Virus record (IMG/VR): IMGVR_UViG_2681813421_000002
Span: 22,586-86,585 of that record
DNA length: 64,000 nt
Reading direction: 5' to 3' (one strand)
Source of the DNA: a virus
Lineage: Duplodnaviria > Heunggongvirae > Uroviricota > Caudoviricetes
Within the stretch, counting starts at the first letter, position 1. Each line of letters opens with the position of its first letter. This document shows positions 10,294 through 52,473 of the stretch, piece by piece. A program made the translations under genes and the position numbers. The notes below the pieces were generated by a model, which ran no database searches, was not told the origin of the DNA, and worked only from the letters and a program-made list of their open reading frames with translations.

Positions 10294-11235
10294 TTAACTA
10301 ACAATCCAGTCCATAGCAATAACATCCTCTGGAGCTAAATCAATAGCATGGATTTTCCCGTCACGGATGGTGCGCCAGTGCTTTCGTGATCCACCTTCGG
10401 GCCACACCCATATACCTTCAGGCCAGGAAGAACGACGACACACTGTTGCGTATCCAGTCCTGATCTTCTCTCTGACGGTATGTAGTGACAGATTATCCTT
10501 TGGGCTTTCAGGCACAGGATGGTGGATTGCCTGAAACATCCCCATCTTTGGATGATACCAGCGTTTATTGCGTGGTTCTGCCTCCGACATCACCTGCTTA
10601 AAGGCTTTCCGGAAGGGGGCCAGGGCCACAATGGAGCGTCGCGCAAGCAAACCATCTGGAGTTAAAAACTCATGCGTATCGGTGGGAATCCGGAAAGCGT
10701 TAACCAGGTTGCGACATTTGGCTTCAGTCAGGCCACATTTCGCCGCCAGCTGGCGGTAGCCAATGTAGCCTTCCGGAATATTGCCTTTCTTTATTTGCTC
10801 GAGTGTTTCAGCGACCATCGATACTTGTGCTGATACCTCGGCTACCTGGGCATTTACGGCGTTGATCCGGCGTTCATGCTCAAGATGCATTTGCGCCATT
10901 TCAGCCAGGATTTCGGCTTTTGATTTTAACTGTACCCGGGCATTCTCCAGTTCGCGCCAGCGGTCCACCAGCCGGGCGGTGAATTCCGGAGAGAGCTGCG
11001 CGACGACAATGATGCTGTCTCGTTTTCCTTGTTCGCCTTCAAATATGTAAGCCTTGGAAAATCGACGAGGGCCAACTGATTGTTTATTTTCAATTTCCAC
11101 AGATTGTGGAAATTGGATCACACTCTTTTTAGCCAGTGTTTCGATAGTTCTCTTCACACTATCTTGGCGACTTCCTACCAGTTCCGCGATCTCAATGCTG
11201 GTCATTGTCGCTTTTTGAGAGATGGACAGATTCAT
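10294..11235 (-). CDS. ant: Antirepressor-like protein (Rha-type N-terminal domain) with C-terminal DUF2829-like extension
   Basis: 313 aa; N-terminus MTSIEIAELVGSRQDSVKRTIETL (Rha/antirepressor family), paralog of 49975-50682; last ~65 aa (VCRRSSW...WVWPEGG...DVIAMDWIVS) resemble DUF2829. Confidence 0.6.
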   Translation of the reverse strand: MNLSISQKATMTSIEIAELVGSRQDSVKRTIETLAKKSVIQFPQSVEIENKQSVGPRRFSKAYIFEGEQGKRDSIIVVAQLSPEFTARLVDRWRELENARVQLKSKAEILAEMAQMHLEHERRINAVNAQVAEVSAQVSMVAETLEQIKKGNIPEGYIGYRQLAAKCGLTEAKCRNLVNAFRIPTDTHEFLTPDGLLARRSIVALAPFRKAFKQVMSEAEPRNKRWYHPKMGMFQAIHHPVPESPKDNLSLHTVREKIRTGYATVCRRSSWPEGIWVWPEGGSRKHWRTIRDGKIHAIDLAPEDVIAMDWIVS

Positions 11236-11450
11236 CAGTGCACCTCCACGCAGTTCATTGGCAGATTCCAGTAATTGAGGATCTCCATCGCATCAAGAGT
11301 GAAGCGTGCGGCAAAAATGCAGGGTTCTTCAGGAAGGTATGAACGAGCTTCTGCTTCGGTTGCAGCCATGACGCAGATATACAGGTGTTTTTGGCAGGAA
11401 TAGAAACGCCAGATAAATTCAGAATGAGTTGGGGTAGGGATAGTAGCCAT
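11235..11450 (-). CDS. icd: Icd-like (Ash family) small protein
   Basis: 71 aa; EFIWRF...KH...AATEAEAR motif as in P1 Icd-like proteins; sits between c4-like RNA region and ant, as in P1 immI. Confidence 0.5.
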   Translation of the reverse strand: MATIPTPTHSEFIWRFYSCQKHLYICVMAATEAEARSYLPEEPCIFAARFTLDAMEILNYWNLPMNCVEVH

Positions 11451-11454
11451 ATTG

Positions 11455-11700
11455 GCAGCCTCCTTTTGCTAATTTAAGGAGCTACCGCGTGAGGTTCCAA
11501 TCTCAATGGCGGTAGCACTGACTGGGTTGGAACTACCGGCGCAAAAGGGAACCGGCCTGCCTTTCGGCAGCCCAGCCAGCACTACCATTGATCTCTGAGC
11601 TAAACGCTACGTATGGCTGTGCGATGGCATGACACAAGAAAAGACGCTTTCGGCGTCTGTGTCGCCTTTTGCATTATCCGGGGTTCCAATCCCGGCACCC
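11455..11700 (-). ncRNA. c4: c4-like antisense RNA region (immI-type) with repeated target elements
   Basis: Two hairpins whose loops carry GGTTCCAATC (plus-strand reading, near 11490-11520 and 11678-11695) and an intervening complementary element GGTTGGAACTACC; layout matches P1 c4 with a1/b1 and a2/b2 sites ahead of icd. Confidence 0.4.
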
Positions 11701-11763
11701 GTTTTTCTAAGGTGCCGTAGAAATATACCCCACGATAATGCCAGGGCGCAACAGTCAGTATTT

Positions 11764-11930
11764 TATGCTTTGGCGGATTTCTTCCGGGCTTGCTTGCAGG
11801 CGTAGGCCATTGCTTTAGCTTTCACTTCATCCAGCTTCCCGGTAATCACTTCTTTTCCGAGAGTGACAAACCAGTCATAGCAACCGCCAGTAATGTTCTT
11901 GATTTGAAAGTTGAGGTAGCGAACAGTCAT
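11764..11930 (-). CDS. Small ORF (55 aa), translationally coupled to a 29-codon ORF upstream
   Basis: MTVRYLNFQIKNITGGCYDWFVTLGKEVITGK...; upstream ORF stop overlaps its ATG (ATGA). Confidence 0.25.
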
Positions 11931-12249
11931 TTTGACTCCCCCAGCGCGAATAAAGAATGCAGATTATCGCGTGAGTGGTGGACGACGAGTGATGGGAAAA
12001 GACTGTAGTTGTTCATAGTGTAGTGACTCCTTGCTTTCGGAGCCGCCATCGACTGTTCCACGGTCTGGTGGCGGCGCAATAAAGGCTGGAACACCGTGAG
12101 TCAACGGGGGCTTTTCAGCCACCTATATTGCACCGCCATAGGTATGGCGGGGGCAATAATACGAAAAACTAAACAGTTTGTCTCAAAAAGTTGACCGGTG
12201 TGCCAATCGGTAGTGAATGTACATCGGAGAAATTTACAATTCAACTTAA

Positions 12250-12269
12250 AATGTTAGAAAACTAATTTA
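12250..12269 (-). promoter_or_regulatory. Operator-like motif (AATTAGTTTTCTAACAT on minus strand)
   Basis: Member of dispersed operator family; lies at 3-prime end of ref-like gene, upstream of the small-ORF/c4-like region. Confidence 0.45.
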
Positions 12270-12840: not shown

Positions 12841-12904
12841 GATGGCTGCCTCTTACTTTTCAGCTATTTTTCTATGATTGATCAAAACAGTTAGATATTC
12901 AAAA

Positions 12905-12922
12905 TTGATTTTCTAACACAAA
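12905..12922 (+). promoter_or_regulatory. Operator-like motif (TTGATTTTCTAACACAAA) in divergent promoter region
   Basis: Between ref-like start (12840) and plus-strand operon start (13113). Confidence 0.5.
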
Positions 12923-17433: not shown

Positions 17434-17473
17434 TCAAATCATTTACGCACTCAAAATCACATTAGAACATTGA

Positions 17474-17493
17474 TTTTAGTTTTCTAACATATT
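17474..17493 (+). promoter_or_regulatory. Operator-like motif (TTTTAGTTTTCTAACATATT)
   Basis: About 40 bp upstream of 17532 start. Confidence 0.5.
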
Positions 17494-21258: not shown

Positions 21259-22661
21259 TCACTATTACCAAAGAACGCCTGCTGACAATCCAGCAGTGGC
21301 GCGAAACATACGGACCTGGTAGCAACGTTGTACTGCCAGCAGAAGAAGCGGAAGAACTGGCACGAATTGCTCTGGCATCGCTGGAAGCAAAACCAGTTGC
21401 TTATATTTTCAAACATCCGGCCGGGAAATTATTCTGGGCTTTAACGGATGAAAGCAATAAAGAGCAAGCGGACGTTATTCCTGTTTATGCTGCCGCGCCT
21501 GCGTCGGTTGTGCCGGATAATGCATCAGAGCCTCTTGCTTATGCTTACAAAGAGCTTACGCCTGAGATTATGCGCAACCATTTAGCTGTATTCGAGCGAT
21601 ATGGAATAGCCCCAAACGATAGCTCTACCACAATTCAGGCACTGCGAATCGCGCTGGATGGTATAGAGCGGAGCGACGCCATGCTTCAGTCCGGAAACTT
21701 TCGGGAAAACAAGAATTCGTCAACCAATAATTTTCGGGAAATCGCGGAAACGTCAACCAACTATCCGGTAATTCCTAGTGAGCTGTTGTCCGCAATCCTG
21801 AAGGTTGCCAAGATTCGTGCCGATTTCGATGATTTTGACGGTGACAGGCGAGGTATCGATGATTGTCTGGATGAGGCTGAGCAAGAGCTTATCGTTACCA
21901 TTAACAAATATGCCAGTCAGTTGGCAGCAGAACCGATAGCGACTAATGACGTTCGAGAGCAAACAGCCGTTCCGCCAGTTCCGGTAATGCAGGCTGATGT
22001 CGCGCAGGCAATTGAAAAACTCAAACGGAAATTAGTGGAATGCAATCGCTATAACTACTGTGCAGATGCAGTTAAAGGCGTAGAGGATGCCTGCCGTGCT
22101 GTTAGCTATAGCCAAGCCGACAATCAGCCAGCATCTGGCAACCAGGCTGCCGAATCCAATCGCGGTAATGAGTGGACCGGCAATCCTGATATTGATAACG
22201 CCATCATCATGCTCGATCGCATAGATACGCTGGAAAGTTGCGATGATGACCGTATTGAGGCTGTTAAGGCTGTTTTGCGTAGACTGGCTGGCAACTATCC
22301 GGATATTCCGGATAGTTCGGTGCCAGCGCCAGGAAAGGGCGTCACCGGTGAACGTATCCGCATTAAGCCGCATGTTTATCGCGAACTGGTTAACCGTCTC
22401 CACGATACAGCGATCAAGTGTGCTGGCACCCAGCAATTACGAGAAAGAATTAGCCGTGTTTTGGGCGACGTTATTACACCAGATCATCATAAACAAGCCG
22501 AGAAAAGTGACCTGGAAAGGTGTCACCTTGAGGCGGCATTAAACATTAAGCCGGGGCATACGCTTGGCATTATTGATGCACTATTGGTTCATAAGATGGC
22601 CAGGGCTTTATTGCCGCTGGTGGCTGAAAAGCATGAGGTGGACCATGCCAACGAAAGCTGA
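21255..22661 (+). CDS. Hypothetical protein with internal tandem repeat and C-terminal motif shared with 13113-13724
   Basis: 468 aa; repeated FRENK/FREIAE segment; YRELVNRLHD...GTQQLRER. Confidence 0.5.
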   Translation: MITITKERLLTIQQWRETYGPGSNVVLPAEEAEELARIALASLEAKPVAYIFKHPAGKLFWALTDESNKEQADVIPVYAAAPASVVPDNASEPLAYAYKELTPEIMRNHLAVFERYGIAPNDSSTTIQALRIALDGIERSDAMLQSGNFRENKNSSTNNFREIAETSTNYPVIPSELLSAILKVAKIRADFDDFDGDRRGIDDCLDEAEQELIVTINKYASQLAAEPIATNDVREQTAVPPVPVMQADVAQAIEKLKRKLVECNRYNYCADAVKGVEDACRAVSYSQADNQPASGNQAAESNRGNEWTGNPDIDNAIIMLDRIDTLESCDDDRIEAVKAVLRRLAGNYPDIPDSSVPAPGKGVTGERIRIKPHVYRELVNRLHDTAIKCAGTQQLRERISRVLGDVITPDHHKQAEKSDLERCHLEAALNIKPGHTLGIIDALLVHKMARALLPLVAEKHEVDHANES

Positions 22662-28435: not shown

Positions 28436-28455
28436 ATGTGTTAGAAATTTAATTT
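28436..28455 (-). promoter_or_regulatory. Operator-like motif (AATTAAATTTCTAACACATC on minus strand)
   Basis: Between cre stop and start of the 114-aa gene. Confidence 0.5.
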
Positions 28456-29845: not shown

Positions 29846-29864
29846 TTATGTTAGAAAACTAAAT
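29846..29864 (-). promoter_or_regulatory. Operator-like motif (ATTTAGTTTTCTAACATAAA on minus strand)
   Basis: 13 bp upstream of the start codon of 29877-30914. Confidence 0.5.
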
Positions 29865-29876
29865 CGAGTAGGAATA

Positions 29877-30914
29877 ATGAGTAAGAAGTCGATCGAGAAA
29901 GAGTACAAACGGTTCCTGCAAACCGCTGAACGGTGGAAAGAGCTGGTGGTCGCAAACTCTGTTTTCCATGATACCAGTTATGCTGGCGAGGAATTCCGCC
30001 ATGTTGCATTAACGCATGACCAAAACATATTAGAAGAAGCTGAAAAATGTCTTGCTGAATGGAAAGCCTTCGTTGACATGTGCCGCGATGCCGACGGCAA
30101 AGCGTCGAACATTGTTGAGTCTGTATATTCTCCGATCCCATTCATCATTGAGGACACCAATCAAAGCACGCATGTCGTTGTGCAAAGCGCTACAACAACA
30201 CGTACATTTACACGTGAACAATTGCTAAAAAAATACGACAAAATCATAAAGAAAAGCCTGAAAAATAGGGTTTTTTCTCAAATCGTAGGTGCTCTTGAAG
30301 AAGAACAGCGCTTCTTTGAAGCTGAGCCTGAAGGCGAGATCTACCGGGCGCGTAAAGAGGCATATACAGATGTTGTGCTGACAACAAACATCGAAGGCAG
30401 CAATGCCCTTTCTCGCTTTAGAGTTGGCGCACATGGCGCATTGGTTTTCGCAAGACTACCGAAGACAACGATCCCCGTTGTCAATAATGTTGGTGAACGC
30501 CGGAGCATTACAATTTATTCTGGCGTCGAATCGGTACCATGCAGCCTTCTCGGCGATTTTAACTTATATCGTGTTCGTGACCTGGAAAAACACCAGCCAA
30601 GCTACGTTGCGAAGTCGTACATCTTAAGGAACATCGATATTCGCAATGAAAGCCTTAAGCAGAAATCCGCTAAGATGCTGGAGGATGCCGATCCGGCTAT
30701 TCGCCATATCATTGAACGTAAGATACGTACATCACGTGAAGCAATGGCAAGGTTGGATAAAATGGATCTGGAATTGTTAGACGTAATGATGGCCTCTGGA
30801 GACGACCTGACCGGCATTAAACTGAATGAAGCTCGTAAAAAATACGGCAAAGCAATCGAAGAACGTTACGGATACACATTCCCCCAAACGCAGTACGCCG
30901 CGAAGCTCTGGTAA
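29877..30914 (+). CDS. Candidate C1-type immunity repressor (positional analog of P1 c1)
   Basis: 345 aa; lies between lox/cre and pacB, convergent with pacB, flanked upstream by two operator-like motifs; I do not recognise the protein sequence itself. Confidence 0.4.
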   Translation: MSKKSIEKEYKRFLQTAERWKELVVANSVFHDTSYAGEEFRHVALTHDQNILEEAEKCLAEWKAFVDMCRDADGKASNIVESVYSPIPFIIEDTNQSTHVVVQSATTTRTFTREQLLKKYDKIIKKSLKNRVFSQIVGALEEEQRFFEAEPEGEIYRARKEAYTDVVLTTNIEGSNALSRFRVGAHGALVFARLPKTTIPVVNNVGERRSITIYSGVESVPCSLLGDFNLYRVRDLEKHQPSYVAKSYILRNIDIRNESLKQKSAKMLEDADPAIRHIIERKIRTSREAMARLDKMDLELLDVMMASGDDLTGIKLNEARKKYGKAIEERYGYTFPQTQYAAKLW

Positions 30915-34280: not shown

Positions 34281-34315
34281 TATATTAGAAAATTAATTCC
34301 ATTCATCTAACACTA
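34281..34315. promoter_or_regulatory. Operator-like dyad (TATTAGAAAATTAATT ... TCATCTAACACTA)
   Basis: Two core motifs in inverted orientation upstream of the lpa-like gene. Confidence 0.5.
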
Positions 34316-35733: not shown

Positions 35734-35809
35734 TGGTGGCCCCTACCGGACTTGAACCGGTGACCGTGCGATTATGAGTCGCCAGCTCTAACCACTGAGC
35801 TAAAGGGCC
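35734..35809 (-). tRNA. tRNA with CAU anticodon, Ile2 (lysidine) type
   Basis: 76 nt with encoded CCA; near-identical in acceptor, D and anticodon arms to E. coli ileX-type tRNA as I recall it. Confidence 0.75.
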
Positions 35810-37144: not shown

Positions 37145-37231
37145 TGGCGGAGAGTAATGGAATCGAACCATCATCGCTTGCGCAATGGGACGGTTTTCAA
37201 GACCGCTTGAGCACCATGCTCCCTACTCTCC
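37145..37231 (-). tRNA. Type II tRNA with long variable arm, anticodon UGA (Ser-like)
   Basis: 87 nt; acceptor GGAGAGT/ACTCTCC, anticodon stem GCGGT/ACCGT with loop CUUGAAA, T-arm GATGG-TTCGATT-CCATT, G73 and CCA. Confidence 0.5.
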
Positions 37232-37365
37232 CGTTATTGTGGCGACCGGTGCTGATCTCCGGCTTGCGGTTATTTCAGACTCTCACGGGCGTTTAATTGC
37301 CCCGCCGAACAGCTCTTTTCCGCAATAGCTGCAATGTCTTTCGCGCATCAGCCTGCGCATTCACC

Positions 37366-37685: not shown

Positions 37686-37761
37686 TGGTGCCGGTTAACG
37701 GACTCGAACCGCTGACATCCTGCTTACAAGGCAGGCGCTCTACCAACTGAGCTAAACCGGC
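37686..37761 (-). tRNA. tRNA-Thr (anticodon UGU)
   Basis: 76 nt; GCCGGTT acceptor, GCTCAGTTGGTAGAGC D-arm, loop CUUGUAA, T-arm GGTTCGAGTCC, CCA. Confidence 0.8.
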
Positions 37762-37763
37762 AT

Positions 37764-37840
37764 TGGCGATGGTGGGTGGATTCGAACCACCGACCGACAG
37801 CTTAGAAGGCTGCTGCTCTATCCTACTGAGCTACACCATC
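37764..37840 (-). tRNA. tRNA-Arg (anticodon UCU)
   Basis: 77 nt; loop CUUCUAA, T-arm GGTGGTTCGAATCCACC, CCA end. Confidence 0.75.
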
Positions 37841-39055: not shown

Positions 39056-39076
39056 AATTTAGTTTTCTAACATATT
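39056..39076 (+). promoter_or_regulatory. Operator-like motif (AATTTAGTTTTCTAACATATT)
   Basis: Overlaps the 3-prime end of gene 39075-40283; placed to control minus-strand transcription into the 38.3-39.0 kb noncoding region. Confidence 0.45.
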
Positions 39077-40304: not shown

Positions 40305-40325
40305 AAATTAGTTTTCTAACATATT
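40305..40325 (+). promoter_or_regulatory. Operator-like motif (AAATTAGTTTTCTAACATATT)
   Basis: 22 bp upstream of the start codon of 39075-40283. Confidence 0.5.
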
Positions 40326-49745: not shown

Positions 49746-49769
49746 AAAAAGCCCCGGCCAGGCCGGGGC
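49745..49769 (-). terminator. Rho-independent terminator (minus strand)
   Basis: GCCCCGGCC-A-GGCCGGGGC followed on minus strand by a T-run. Confidence 0.5.
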
Positions 49770-49777
49770 ATCACGCT

Positions 49778-49978
49778 TCAAGTCACGATCCAATCATTAC
49801 CGACTATATCAGCCGTCGATAAATAAACTTCCCGGATCTTGAGTCCATTAATACAAAACCATCCGGTAGTAGAGTAATTATCAGGCCAGGCCCATACATC
49901 AATACTCCATGCTTTACGGCGGCACACTTCAGCCTGTCCTTCCCTGATTTTTTTTACCGCCTGCATGATGTCCATCAC
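49778..49978 (-). CDS. DUF2829-like small protein (free-standing counterpart of the ant C-terminal extension at 10294-10490)
   Basis: 66 aa; KIREGQAEVCRRKAWSIDVWAWPDN...DIVGNDWIVT aligns with C-terminus of the 313-aa antirepressor. Confidence 0.5.
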   Translation of the reverse strand: MMDIMQAVKKIREGQAEVCRRKAWSIDVWAWPDNYSTTGWFCINGLKIREVYLSTADIVGNDWIVT

Positions 49979-50682
49979 TCACCTCCCCAACCGATCACCT
50001 GGAATTGCCCCATTTTGGGGTGATACCAGCGTTTTCCTCGGTGTTCAGCCTCCGACATCATCCGGTTAAAAGCATTCATGAAGGGAGATAAGGCCACGAT
50101 GGAACGACGCGACAATACCCCCTCTGGAGTTAAAAACTCATGCGTATCGGTGGGAATCCGGTAAGCGTTGACAAGGTTGCGGCATTTGGCTTCGGTCAGG
50201 CCACATTTCGCAGCCAGCTGGCGGTAGCCAATGTAGCCATCTGGCATATTGCCTTTCTTGATTTGCTCAACGGTTTCAGCGACCTGGCTAACCTTTGACT
50301 CAACAGCATGAAGCCGCTTTTGCTGCTGAACTGCATTTGCAGCCATTGCGGCGATCATCTCTATTTCGGTCAACGGCTGGCGTACTTGTTCTTCCAGTTC
50401 GCGCCAGCGGTCCACCAGCCGGGCGGTGAATTCCGGAGAGAGCTGCGCAACGACAATAATGCTGTCTCGTTTGCCTTGCTCGCCTTCGAAGACGTAGTGT
50501 GAATTTTTAACTTTAAATCCTAAGTTATTGATATTTTCGGAAACCTCCATTGGAGGAAGTGGAATAACACCTGATTTACTCAAGCGTTCAATAGTGCGTT
50601 TAACGTTATCCGGGCGACTTCCCACCAGCTCCGCGATCTCAATGCTGGTCATTGATGGCTTTTCAAGAATGCAGATTTCCAT
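49975..50682 (-). CDS. ant: Antirepressor-like protein (Rha-type), paralog of 10294-11235
   Basis: 235 aa; shares N-terminal (MTSIEIAELVGSR...) and central (YIGYRQLAAKCGLTEAKCRNLVNA) blocks with the other copy. Confidence 0.6.
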   Translation of the reverse strand: MEICILEKPSMTSIEIAELVGSRPDNVKRTIERLSKSGVIPLPPMEVSENINNLGFKVKNSHYVFEGEQGKRDSIIVVAQLSPEFTARLVDRWRELEEQVRQPLTEIEMIAAMAANAVQQQKRLHAVESKVSQVAETVEQIKKGNMPDGYIGYRQLAAKCGLTEAKCRNLVNAYRIPTDTHEFLTPEGVLSRRSIVALSPFMNAFNRMMSEAEHRGKRWYHPKMGQFQVIGWGGE

Positions 50683-50906
50683 CAGTGTGCCTCCGCAATT
50701 CCGGGATTGGTAATATTGCGATACCAGGGATTAGTGTTTGGTTGTGGGGAAGTAGAGAAACGACCAGTAAGAACACCATACTGATCAGGGATCAGAGAAC
50801 GGGCTTCTTTTTCGGTTGCGGCAATTGCGAAGTGATCGCAGTGTTTTTGCAGGGAGTGGAAACGCCAGATAAATTCCGGGCGCGAGCAAGGATTGGCATT
50901 AACCAT
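50682..50906 (-). CDS. icd: Icd-like (Ash family) small protein, second copy
   Basis: EFIWRFHSLQKH...AATEKEAR; the track ORF extends further 5-prime into what I read as noncoding RNA sequence. Confidence 0.45.
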   Translation of the reverse strand: MVNANPCSRPEFIWRFHSLQKHCDHFAIAATEKEARSLIPDQYGVLTGRFSTSPQPNTNPWYRNITNPGIAEAH

Positions 50907-50929
50907 AGTTACGGCCTCATTCGTAGGTT

Positions 50930-51200
50930 TAACAACCTGCGCCCCGCTGCTAAACGGGTGGCAGGACGTGACGGGGTTAGCAGACTGGCACGAATGAAAC
51001 CAGCAGGCCGAAGCCTCCCCATCACGCCCCACCATAATTCGGGCGTAACGTGGTTTTACGGACACAAAAAACCGCAATATCGGATATCTGCGGTTGTCCG
51101 CATTCGTATTCAGGCTGCTAAACCCGGTCGCAGAATTTGCTACGACGACATGAATATAAGCCTGAAAACATGGAAGATCAACTAAAAATTTCAGCAATGG
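50930..51200 (-). ncRNA. Second c4-like antisense RNA region with a different target motif
   Basis: Repeated GCTGCTAAAC elements (near 50935 and 51113) and a partly complementary GGTTAGCAG element between them. Confidence 0.35.
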
Positions 51201-51248
51201 ATGACTTCAGTCGATGATGCAGATCATACATTCCGATTTAGAAACAGC

Positions 51249-51270
51249 AAATTAATTTTCTAACACAAAT
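51249..51270 (+). promoter_or_regulatory. Operator-like motif (AAATTAATTTTCTAACACAAAT)
   Basis: Upstream of the second c4/icd/ant-like module. Confidence 0.5.
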
Positions 51271-51319
51271 TATTGAGCGAGCATTTTCCGATCATTGGGA
51301 TGTTTTGTAGACGCACAGG

Positions 51320-52282
51320 TCATCCCCTAAAGCCAGCCGGGATTGACCAATCCTCACGGTCAAATTCAGACCGATAGCCACGCTGTTTCATCAGGTCAAA
51401 GGCTTCACCAATGGTTGCACACCCCTGGGAGCCAGAATAATCCATTGAGAAATCCAGGGCTCTGGATTGTTTAGGCTTATTCACTGCGGTAGCTGCACTA
51501 CGTATCCATGCAAATTTTTTTGCCAGCTTTTCAGCGGTACGATACAGAGCCTGCCGTTTTGCGTGCCCCTCGTCTGAACGACGCTTTGCAGCTCTCGCTT
51601 TTGCCGCCGCCAGGCAGTGGTTGGTATGTTCTTCCCTGATTACTGGTTTTTTATCCAGTACCCCATTATCCGCTTGAGAACTATCTGCTGGTGAAGCCTT
51701 TGGCTGAACCGCGCATGATCTTTCTCTTCTTTTGGCTATAGAGTGACTCTTATTTTCTATTGGCTGTTCATTTTGAACATGGGGGGACTTGTTCAATTTG
51801 AACAGGGGGGTCCCAGTTTCAAAAAAATAACGAACCTTTGAAATCAACTGCTTAACCAGTTTTGTGGCGTTGGCAAATTTGATGCCCTGCTTACCCCCTA
51901 TCTCCATTGCTACATGAATGAAGTGGAGAAATTGTGTCGTAAACCGATATACGTTACACACCTGGGCATTGTTATTCGCTACCTGATGTTGCTTAACAAG
52001 CATTCCGCACTTCGTCGCTTCAGCAAATGCCCGGCGCACAGTAGAAATACTGCGTCCTGTAATCTCGGACATATCAGCATATGAGCGACGGATCATGTAT
52101 TCATCGGTAGACCCTGCCAGGTTGGCGAACTCGGCAATAATGGCGCTATGTGAAGGGGAAAGAAGACCGCTATGACGAGCAAAAAAACTCAACTGATGAC
52201 CTTTGATTTTTTTGTGGTATTCAGTGTTGTTTTTATACTCAGAAGTGTTGAAAGTTACTGAAACTGAATTTAAAATACTCAC
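51320..52282 (-). CDS. RepL-like replication protein (HTH; tentative)
   Basis: 320 aa; HTH-like segment MSEITGRSISTVRRAFAEATKCGMLV; operator-controlled and adjacent to immI-like module, as for P1 repL. Confidence 0.4.
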   Translation of the reverse strand: MSILNSVSVTFNTSEYKNNTEYHKKIKGHQLSFFARHSGLLSPSHSAIIAEFANLAGSTDEYMIRRSYADMSEITGRSISTVRRAFAEATKCGMLVKQHQVANNNAQVCNVYRFTTQFLHFIHVAMEIGGKQGIKFANATKLVKQLISKVRYFFETGTPLFKLNKSPHVQNEQPIENKSHSIAKRRERSCAVQPKASPADSSQADNGVLDKKPVIREEHTNHCLAAAKARAAKRRSDEGHAKRQALYRTAEKLAKKFAWIRSAATAVNKPKQSRALDFSMDYSGSQGCATIGEAFDLMKQRGYRSEFDREDWSIPAGFRG

Positions 52283-52453: not shown

Positions 52454-52473
52454 TATGTTAGAAATTTAACTTA
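52454..52473 (-). promoter_or_regulatory. Operator-like motif (AGTTAAATTTCTAACATAG on minus strand)
   Basis: Overlaps a candidate promoter upstream of the RepL-like gene. Confidence 0.5.

Follow-up and report, generated by a model that had tools for sequence, protein, structure and literature searches.

We analysed a window of 64,000 nucleotides taken from a virus record (IMG/VR IMGVR_UViG_2681813421_000002, positions 22,586 to 86,585; the positions below are those of the window), and found that a cluster of RNA elements and small genes at about 51 kb, next to a RepL-like gene, is quite likely a functional antisense immunity operon of the P1 immI type, that is, the D6-lineage orthologue of the c4-icd-ant operon of phages P1 and P7. 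We call it module 2, and the related cluster at 11.5 kb module 1. An earlier note, made from the letters alone, had described module 2 as c4/icd/ant-like, with a target sequence different from that of module 1. RNA family membership, fold, complementarity, covariation, protein homologies, stop/start overlaps and enrichment of the operator motif were computed.

Judged by its alignments, the window comes from a plasmid prophage of the D6 type, closely related to phage D6 itself. The segment 49700-52400 is 97.4% identical over 2.7 kb to Escherichia phage D6 (MF356679, 19713-22411), whereas P1, P7 and other P1-like phages align with it over 372 bases only, the c4-to-icd segment, with 86-93% identity. 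By the same kind of comparison it is module 2, and not module 1, that is the true orthologue of P1/P7 immI, the 11.5-kb module being divergent.

RNA elements of module 2

As read from the sequence, a complete P1 immI-type operon runs on the minus strand from 51265 to 49751, in the order operator-like 17-mer, two promoter-like sites, leader with the elements a1 and b1, C4 RNA, elements a2 and b2, icd, ant, an open reading frame (ORF) of 65 aa and a terminator (Table 1). The a and b elements, c4, the promoter-like sites and the candidate operator were assigned by alignment to the P1 and P7 records, which annotate Oc4, both promoters, a1, b1, c4, a2 and b2.

The earlier note had seen an element repeated twice near the RepL-like gene, and this is correct: the window holds two copies of GCTGCTAAAC, and no more, at 50946-50955 and 51114-51123 on the plus strand, with 0.15 copies expected and only one of 100 shuffles reaching two. 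Read on the minus strand, which is the coding one, these copies are a2 and a1 (TTAGCAG). Between them lies a' (CTGCTAA, 50983..50977), which the note had called partly complementary; the complementarity stands but it is not partial, a' being a perfect 7-nt complement that lies in a single-stranded junction of C4. Furthermore, there is a second triplet that the note did not report, formed by b1 and b2 (both ACGAATG) and by b' (CATTCGT, 50996..50990) in C4. The element b2 abuts the Shine-Dalgarno sequence GAGG, and the ATG of icd is at 50906. In module 2 all three copies of each element, a and b, match exactly.

Regarding the RNA families, the Rfam model C4 (RF01695) matches at 51039..50954 on the minus strand with 71.9 bits (gathering score 45, E = 4.6e-12, model positions 1-87), and the model c4-a1b1 (RF03163) matches at 51159..51107 with 52.2 bits (gathering score 46.7). 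The leader also gives a full-length match to isrK (RF01394) at 51146..51065, with 47.0 bits, below the gathering score of 50 (E = 5.8e-7).

Folding both RNA regions, as had been suggested, gave z = -6.29 for the C4 of module 2 and z = -5.27 for that of module 1. The C4 of module 2 has a minimum free energy of -45.7 kcal/mol and none of 200 shuffles folds as well; its minimum-free-energy structure is the same as the centroid and consists of a long closing stem with two internal hairpins. In this structure b' is unpaired in the 9-nt loop of hairpin 2 and a' is unpaired in a 7-nt 3' junction, so what the repeats can pair with is exposed in a stable fold. The pairs a2/a' and b2/b' amount to 7 and 8 contiguous Watson-Crick pairs, and the b' loop can form a 10-bp duplex over the Shine-Dalgarno sequence (-10.2 kcal/mol).

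Genes, control region and proposed regulation

The note had also placed paralogous Icd-like and antirepressor genes downstream of the repeats, and the comparison between modules agrees with it. The Icd of module 2 (Icd-2) shares 61% identity with P1 Icd and, over 51 aa, 45% with Icd-1, and the putative antirepressor of module 2 (Ant-2) is 65% identical to the Ant of module 1 (Ant-1) over 237 aa. The TGA stop of icd-2 overlaps the ATG of ant by one base (TGATG, 50684..50680). Pfam finds in Ant-2 an HTH_24 domain and a sub-threshold Phage_pRha domain, and its equivalent in D6, D6_18, is annotated as 'putative anti-repressor, similar to HK97 Roi'.

The 65-aa ORF that follows is 41% identical to residues 256-313, the C-terminal 58, of the 313-aa Ant of module 1. 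Judged by this alignment, the module-1 protein is a fusion of the parts that are split in module 2 (235 aa and 65 aa). The ORF belongs to PHROG 7385 and has no match in Pfam nor in a sequence search of PDB; a DUF2829/Tad2-like protein was considered and dropped, as both searches were without match.

Regarding the control region, the 17-mer TGTTAGAAAAYTAATTT occurs 12 times in the window at up to 3 mismatches, against 0.43 occurrences expected. Copies are found upstream of the c1-like, ref, repL and c4 homologues, and the copy of the c1-like gene is 12 nt upstream of it (29849-29865). This set probably represents D6-type C1 operators, to judge from the motif and its placement, and no P1-type operator is found in the 64-kb window. 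The proximal promoter-like site aligns with P1 TTGACC...TATAGT, annotated as P1c4 in P1. The consensus promoter scan did not return the distal site (51223..51251), the assignment of which we infer.

Table 1. Features of module 2, of its control region and of related loci in the window.
Feature	Position	Strand	Evidence and remarks
Candidate D6-type C1-repressor operator TGTTAGAAAATTAATTT	51249..51265	-	overlaps the -35 of the distal promoter-like site; position as P1 Oc4 (Op51)
Putative distal promoter (P51a/P2c4 equivalent)	51223..51251	-	TTTGCT, 17-nt spacer, TATGAT; read by eye, position matches P1 P2c4
Proximal promoter-like site (P51b/P1c4 equivalent)	51153..51181	-	TTGATC, 17-nt spacer, TATATT; promoter scan
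Leader	51065..51159	-	a1 51121..51115 TTAGCAG; b1 51107..51101 ACGAATG; then terminator-like hairpin and U-run 51094..51066
C4 antisense RNA, 77-nt mature form	50957..51033	-	ends assigned by homology to P1 c4
icd-leader target region	50915..50953	-	a2 50953..50947; b2 50924..50918; GAGG 50918..50915; exact complements of a'/b'
icd-like gene, 74 aa	50682..50906	-	NCBIfam phage_ICD_like 40 bits (cutoff 25); PHROG 1426, E = 5.7e-39
Rha/Roi-like putative antirepressor (Ant-2), 235 aa	49975..50682	-	PHROG 63 'anti-repressor Ant', E = 2.7e-48
65-aa ORF	49778..49975	-	start overlaps ant stop (TGATG); PHROG 7385, E = 1.6e-46; equivalent of D6_17
Intrinsic terminator closing the operon	49751..49769	-	stem of 8 G-C pairs, then TTTTTT
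RepL-like lytic replication gene	51320..52282	-	27% identical to P1 RepL, E about 1e-22; D6_20 equivalent
c1-like repressor gene	29877..30914	+	tblastn with P1-type C1: 21% identity over 270 aa, E = 2.6e-7
17-mer TGTTAGAAAAYTAATTT sites, first part of set	789-818, 12252-12268, 12902-12918, 17473-17489, 28439-28455, 29849-29865		
17-mer TGTTAGAAAAYTAATTT sites, second part of set	34283-34299, 39056-39072, 40305-40321, 51249-51265, 52456-52472		
Module 1	10294..11715	-	IsrK-type leader 11715..11637; C4 11586..11508; icd 11450..11235; 313-aa Ant 11235..10294
Module-1 a elements	a1 11689..11683; a' 11533..11527; a2 11500..11494	-	a1 TTGGAAC; a' GTTCCAA
Module-1 b elements	b1 11672..11665; b' 11548..11541; b2 11469..11462	-	b1 GCAAAAGG; b' CCTTTTGC

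The c1-like repressor is presumed, by analogy, to be the target of the Ant proteins, and the antirepressor role of Ant-2 is a putative one, taken from its position and its family label only. It could be instead that the RNA switch is real and that the regulated proteins are Rha/Roi-type DNA-binding regulators, or toxic or anti-host functions, and not antirepressors of C1, the term immunity module being then a positional analogy. Several results point in this direction or count against our interpretation. Neither Ant-2 nor Ant-1 has a BLASTP match to P1 Ant1 or KilA (E <= 0.01), the Pfam domains are a winged helix and a sub-threshold Rha, relatives of Ant in public sources are named 'Rha family transcriptional regulator' or 'DNA-binding protein', a PDB sequence search with Ant returned nothing meaningful and no sequence-related solved structure, and the C1-like protein is only 21% identical to P1-type C1. 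However, the best family match of both Ant paralogues, which have Rha-like or winged-helix domains, is to PHROG 63 'anti-repressor Ant'. Moreover, the same C4 backbones precede P1 Ant1-type genes elsewhere, which argues that the cassettes are interchangeable, and AnrP, which the homologous IsrK module controls in Gifsy-1, increases transcription of the antQ operon when expressed (PMC4825925). We consider this alternative unlikely, though it has to be taken seriously. As for the description c4/icd/ant-like, it holds for c4 and icd, which are those of the P1/P7 immI orthologue, but not for ant, which is Rha/Roi-like and unrelated to P1 Ant1 or KilA.

Taking module 2 as an immunity operon of the immI type, we infer that the transcript is processed, that repression takes place in vivo, that Ant acts on the C1-like repressor, and why there are two modules. 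Transcription would start at the proximal, probably constitutive promoter and at the distal promoter, which is overlapped by the C1-type operator and would be repressed by the C1-like protein. The transcript would be processed to the 77-nt C4 RNA; in P1 the C4 precursor is processed by RNase P. The b' element, in the hairpin loop, would then pair with b2 and the icd Shine-Dalgarno sequence, and a', in the junction, with a2. This pairing would block translation of icd and, via the one-base stop/start overlaps, also of Ant-2 and the 65-aa ORF. In P1 the block is reinforced by Rho-dependent polarity. The copies a1 and b1, which lie in an IsrK-like leader ending in a terminator hairpin, probably compete for C4 as a decoy or anti-antisense, a role suggested because IsrK trans-activates the downstream antirepressor in Gifsy-1.

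The RepL-like gene is located directly upstream of module 2 on the same strand. Derepressed repL transcription may read into module 2, because the terminator scan predicted no terminator between them. Inside the repL-like gene, at 51765-51815, there are two adjoining copies of TTTGAACA-GGGGGG (ttttgaacatgggggga and atttgaacaggggggt), and these may be lytic-origin repeats, because in P1 oriL is located within repL. Elsewhere in the window there are three tRNA genes (35737-35809, 37689-37761 and 37767-37840, minus strand) and a tRNA-Sec-like match at 37148-37232 (minus strand), which with 43.5 bits is below the threshold of 47.

Specificity and diversity of the modules

The recognition code of module 2 consists of a TTAGCAG with a' CTGCTAA and b ACGAATG with b' CATTCGT, and that of module 1 of a TTGGAAC with a' GTTCCAA and b GCAAAAGG with b' CCTTTTGC. 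The note had claimed a different target sequence for the second module and had asked for cross-complementarity in silico, and the result is in line with the claim. The exposed C4 elements form 7-8 contiguous Watson-Crick pairs with their cognate leaders, whereas the longest runs across modules are of 3-6, and for the b elements at most 3-4 contiguous bases are complementary. Duplexes of whole molecules (RNAduplex, C4 against the leaders) do not discriminate and unfold the C4 stem, and we used loop-only duplexes and accessibility-corrected energies. With the latter, only the cognate C4/leader pairs have both a and b favourable and b over the Shine-Dalgarno sequence. The two modules differ in specificity and, therefore, each C4 should silence only its own operon, as predicted from the sequences.

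In module 1 the Rfam models C4 (11592..11505, 76.7 bits) and isrK (11715..11637, 59.4 bits) match, the latter passing the gathering score. D6 orf84, a 'hypothetical protein' (D6 locus L004, 4307-4606 on the plus strand, approximately 11500-11800 on the plus strand of the window), runs antisense across the C4 and the leader of module 1, and plasmids carry at this position a PGAP 'ash family protein'; in either case the ORF is probably spurious and the sequence that of an RNA gene.

Directly upstream of module 1 we observed a third C4-like RNA (12064..12143, minus strand), which matches the full-length C4 model with 40.2 bits, under the threshold of 45. It has the same three-way fold (z = -5.15), with a' UGUUCCA and b' UGACUC, and exact a2/b2 complements over the ribosome-binding site of a small ORF (12016..11927, minus strand). 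This ORF is coupled to a 55-aa ORF (11930..11763, PHROG 7786) that runs into module 1. The RNA sits just downstream of the operator-like site 12268..12252 and is without annotation in D6. It is invariant in 24 instances among related loci, with no variation to show covariation.

The two or three C4 modules might also form a cross-talking network, with hierarchical instead of orthogonal control through shared or nearly shared a elements. Two results count against our main reading. Once corrected for accessibility, the cognate pairings have small energies (-2.7 kcal/mol at a and -3.7 kcal/mol at b), and these values depend on the model. Besides, six bases just 5' of the icd-1 Shine-Dalgarno sequence, UUAGCA, can pair with the a' of C4-2 (CUGCUAA); with accessibility taken into account, the net energy on leader 1 is -5.9 kcal/mol, stronger than at the a site of C4-2 itself. 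This match speaks for cross-talk. So does the sequence GUUCCA, common to C4-1 and the third C4-like RNA, which also have each other's a2 core, and so do the co-resident modules in IMG/VR, which often share a' and differ only in b'. However, the b elements, those that cover the Shine-Dalgarno sequence, have hardly any complementarity between modules, as given above. The UUAGCA match does not covary with the partner module either: D6 keeps the same leader-1 sequence but has CTGTCAA as module-2 a', and the match is absent, so that it is not a conserved feature. Finally, as we read the example of P1 and P7, two changed bases in each element suffice to make phages heteroimmune. Cross-talk is in our opinion improbable, although not strikingly so.

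In order to look at the pairing in other elements, IMG/VR was scanned with sequence patterns for the two C4 backbones, the P1/P7/module-2 type and the module-1 type. The first backbone was found in 123 instances, with 2 a' alleles (CTGCTAA and CTGTCAA) and 7 b' alleles in 12 combinations, and the exact complements of both a' and b' were present upstream and downstream in all of the 115 instances with full flanks. The module-1 backbone was found in 73 instances with 2 x 2 alleles; a1 matched in 70 of 71 and each of the other three sites in 71 of 71. This covariation strongly supports the pairing model. The combination of our window, CTGCTAA/CATTCGT, occurs 12 times in the scan and is not a new allele. 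Assortment of a and b is combinatorial, although for every allele three sites have to agree, along the order a1 b1 b' a' a2 b2. The C4 backbones and the effectors are shuffled as well, either backbone being found before a P1 Ant1-like, an RCS47 Ant-like or a Rha/Roi-like gene. Regarding plasmids, PLSDB holds around 110 with full-length module 2 and around 92 with module 1, mostly plasmids of about 90 kb from E. coli, Salmonella and Shigella.

These data also bear on whether module 2 is a decaying duplicate without present function. It is paralogous to module 1, and Ant-2 is without the C-terminal domain, which is encoded as a separate ORF. However, all parts are intact, from the promoters and a1/b1 through the C4 fold, a2/b2 and the Shine-Dalgarno sequence to the overlapping ORFs and the terminator, the module is full-length in those ~110 plasmids, and the triple covariation across alleles requires ongoing selection on the pairing, which leaves decay as a very improbable explanation.

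That 50930-51200 is protein-coding, which would have spoken against the note, is the least credible alternative of all: two ORFs are open there in the window, a 171-aa in-frame extension of icd on the minus strand and a 177-aa ORF on the plus strand, but the former holds stop codons in 53 of 57 distinct homologous sequences (3 in D6, 2 in P1 and 4 in P7), the antisense frame is interrupted too in most of the 57, neither ORF is annotated in D6, and the Rfam matches together with the nucleotide-level covariation account for the conservation. By these comparisons the region is not conserved as coding.

The note had implied that two modules are something rare, with P1 having one. P1 has indeed one, but D6, about 100 D6-like plasmids and many P1-like elements carry two to four. 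Actually, 29 of 162 IMG/VR contigs have 2-4 modules, or 30 if one apparent duplicate is included. This apparent duplicate of the same specificity (L156/L173, with identical match coordinates) is probably one site fetched twice, and without it no contig has two modules with an identical (a', b') pair. In some P1-like contigs as many as four c4-icd modules share one backbone, and no two of them have the same a'/b' combination (e.g. IMGVR_UViG_2703718869_000013: L021, L056, L103 and L125). The 14 co-resident pairs of modules with the same backbone all differ, where a hand calculation gives ~13% identical pairs expected and a chance of ~0.14 of finding none; with 14 pairs, selection for non-identical specificities within one element is not significant. 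An association between the module-2 a' and the module-1 b allele in 23 contigs (8/2 vs 6/7) was not significant either by a rough hand estimate (p about 0.1).

The comparison with D6 is of interest at this point. The window and D6 are 95-97% identical at both modules (50880-51290 and 11420-11790), but the a/b specificity is different in both. The alleles of D6 are CTGTCAA/CGTAAGT in module 2 and GTCTCAA/CCCTTTTG in module 1. Of the 412 regulatory positions of module 2, 29 differ, 15 of them inside the six a/b elements, which cover 42 nt (Fisher p = 3e-9). Module 1 has 11 differences, and its 45 element nucleotides hold 6 of them (p = 7e-4). It is thus in the recognition code that the divergence is concentrated. 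These changes in the recognition elements are compensated at all three copies. The window and D6 are, thus, predicted from their sequences to differ in immI specificity.

We tentatively propose, as a possibility somewhat short of our preferred degree of confidence, that the c4 modules of P1- and D6-like phage-plasmids may constitute a combinatorial multi-lock code of superinfection immunity under diversifying selection, with separately assorting a and b alleles, stacked non-identical modules, close relatives made heteroimmune via ~40 nt and an IsrK-type leader as anti-antisense decoy. In a limited literature search we found no paper on combinatorial alleles or on stacked modules. By analogy with P1/P7 heteroimmunity, a resident prophage that has two C4 specificities would silence incoming relatives of either type, and an incoming phage with two differently keyed antirepressors would be blocked only by a resident matching both. 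If the proposal is true, each added module widens what the resident prophage silences and gives a superinfecting phage an extra antirepressor that the resident must match, and close relatives such as the element of the window and D6 would be heteroimmune through changes concentrated in about 40 nucleotides.

Module 2 itself is a well-preserved instance of a classic, curated RNA switch, and its duplication was already known in the phage family. Phage-plasmids of the P1-like and D6-like kinds abound in E. coli and Salmonella as carriers of resistance genes, and their mutual exclusion, co-residence and induction probably depend on the C4 specificities that each has. With the a/b alleles catalogued, it could become possible to predict for a given lysogen which elements can invade or induce it. 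Furthermore, the alleles are a natural set of short RNA repressor/target pairs for synthetic biology, with predicted orthogonality.

Comparison with known systems

Phage D6 and D6-like plasmid prophages (e.g. pYU39_89) have the same locus as module 2, and Ant-2 is 99.6% identical to its counterpart in D6. At this locus D6 is annotated with orf15 (darB-like), orf16 (peptidoglycan hydrolase), orf17 (hypothetical), orf18 (putative anti-repressor, Roi-like), orf19 (icd-like) and orf20 (repL-like). Both icd/ant pairs are annotated in D6, and no RNA gene or c4 RNA is annotated at the locus in its record (MF356679). A second c4 and icd region was explicitly remarked in a D6-like element in 2019 (PMC6799933), and the same paper reported a C1 homologue in pYU39_89. 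The double-module arrangement is already on record for D6-like elements and is not new.

Regarding P1 and P7, immI has the same order of elements as module 2, nucleotide identity is 86-88% across c4 and the 5' part of icd, and the C4 backbone and fold are identical. In both cases b2 lies over the icd Shine-Dalgarno sequence and the stop and start codons overlap. In P1 an operator overlaps the distal promoter, and in module 2 a candidate operator, the D6-type 17-mer, is located at the equivalent position. The a element of P7 is identical to that of module 2 (TTAGCAG). However, the b' allele is CATTCGT in module 2, CACTAAC in P1 and CACAATC in P7, and the effector of module 2 is Rha/Roi-like, unrelated to P1 Ant1/Ant2, and is followed by the extra 65-aa ORF. 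Moreover, repL is upstream of the operon in the window, whereas in P1 kilA-repL is downstream, and the window, unlike P1, has a paralogous second module and the third C4-like RNA in the same element.

Another known system is IsrK - orf45 (STnc1160) - AnrP of Gifsy-1 in Salmonella. The leaders of both modules match the full-length isrK model (59.4 bits, and a sub-threshold 47.0 bits for module 2). Gifsy-1 shares with them a leader with a terminator hairpin, a processed RNA of ~80 nt and a short ORF translationally coupled to an antirepressor-like gene; it differs in its coupling ORF, which is not icd-like and lies partly over the processed RNA (PMC4825925). In that work IsrK acts in trans, switching on translation of both the short ORF downstream and the antirepressor-like AnrP, and the ~80-nt STnc1160 RNA is processed from a read-through transcript; its authors likened the system to P4 CI/seqA and not to P1 c4. 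Comparing Gifsy-1 by its description, IsrK appears to be the leader of a c4-type module and STnc1160 a C4-like RNA, a connection made neither in the IsrK paper (PMC4825925) nor in a 2025 review. This link between IsrK and the c4 leader suggests a function for the a1/b1 sites, which had long been without explanation.

Finally, the P1-like phage-plasmids RCS47, JL22 and pTZ20_1P have a second C4 of the module-1 backbone, with a/b alleles of its own, before icd and ant; in RCS47 the extra module lies between pacB and c1, behind a P1-type operator. They differ from the element of the window in that the effector is 54% identical to P1 Ant1 and the element backbone is P1-like and not D6-like. Extra insertions of ant and of icd-ant in P1-like plasmids were described in PMC6906374, where small immI differences underlie the heteroimmunity of P1 and P7. 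The c4 mechanism, together with the role of c4 in P1/P7 heteroimmunity, is summarized in PMC12197685.

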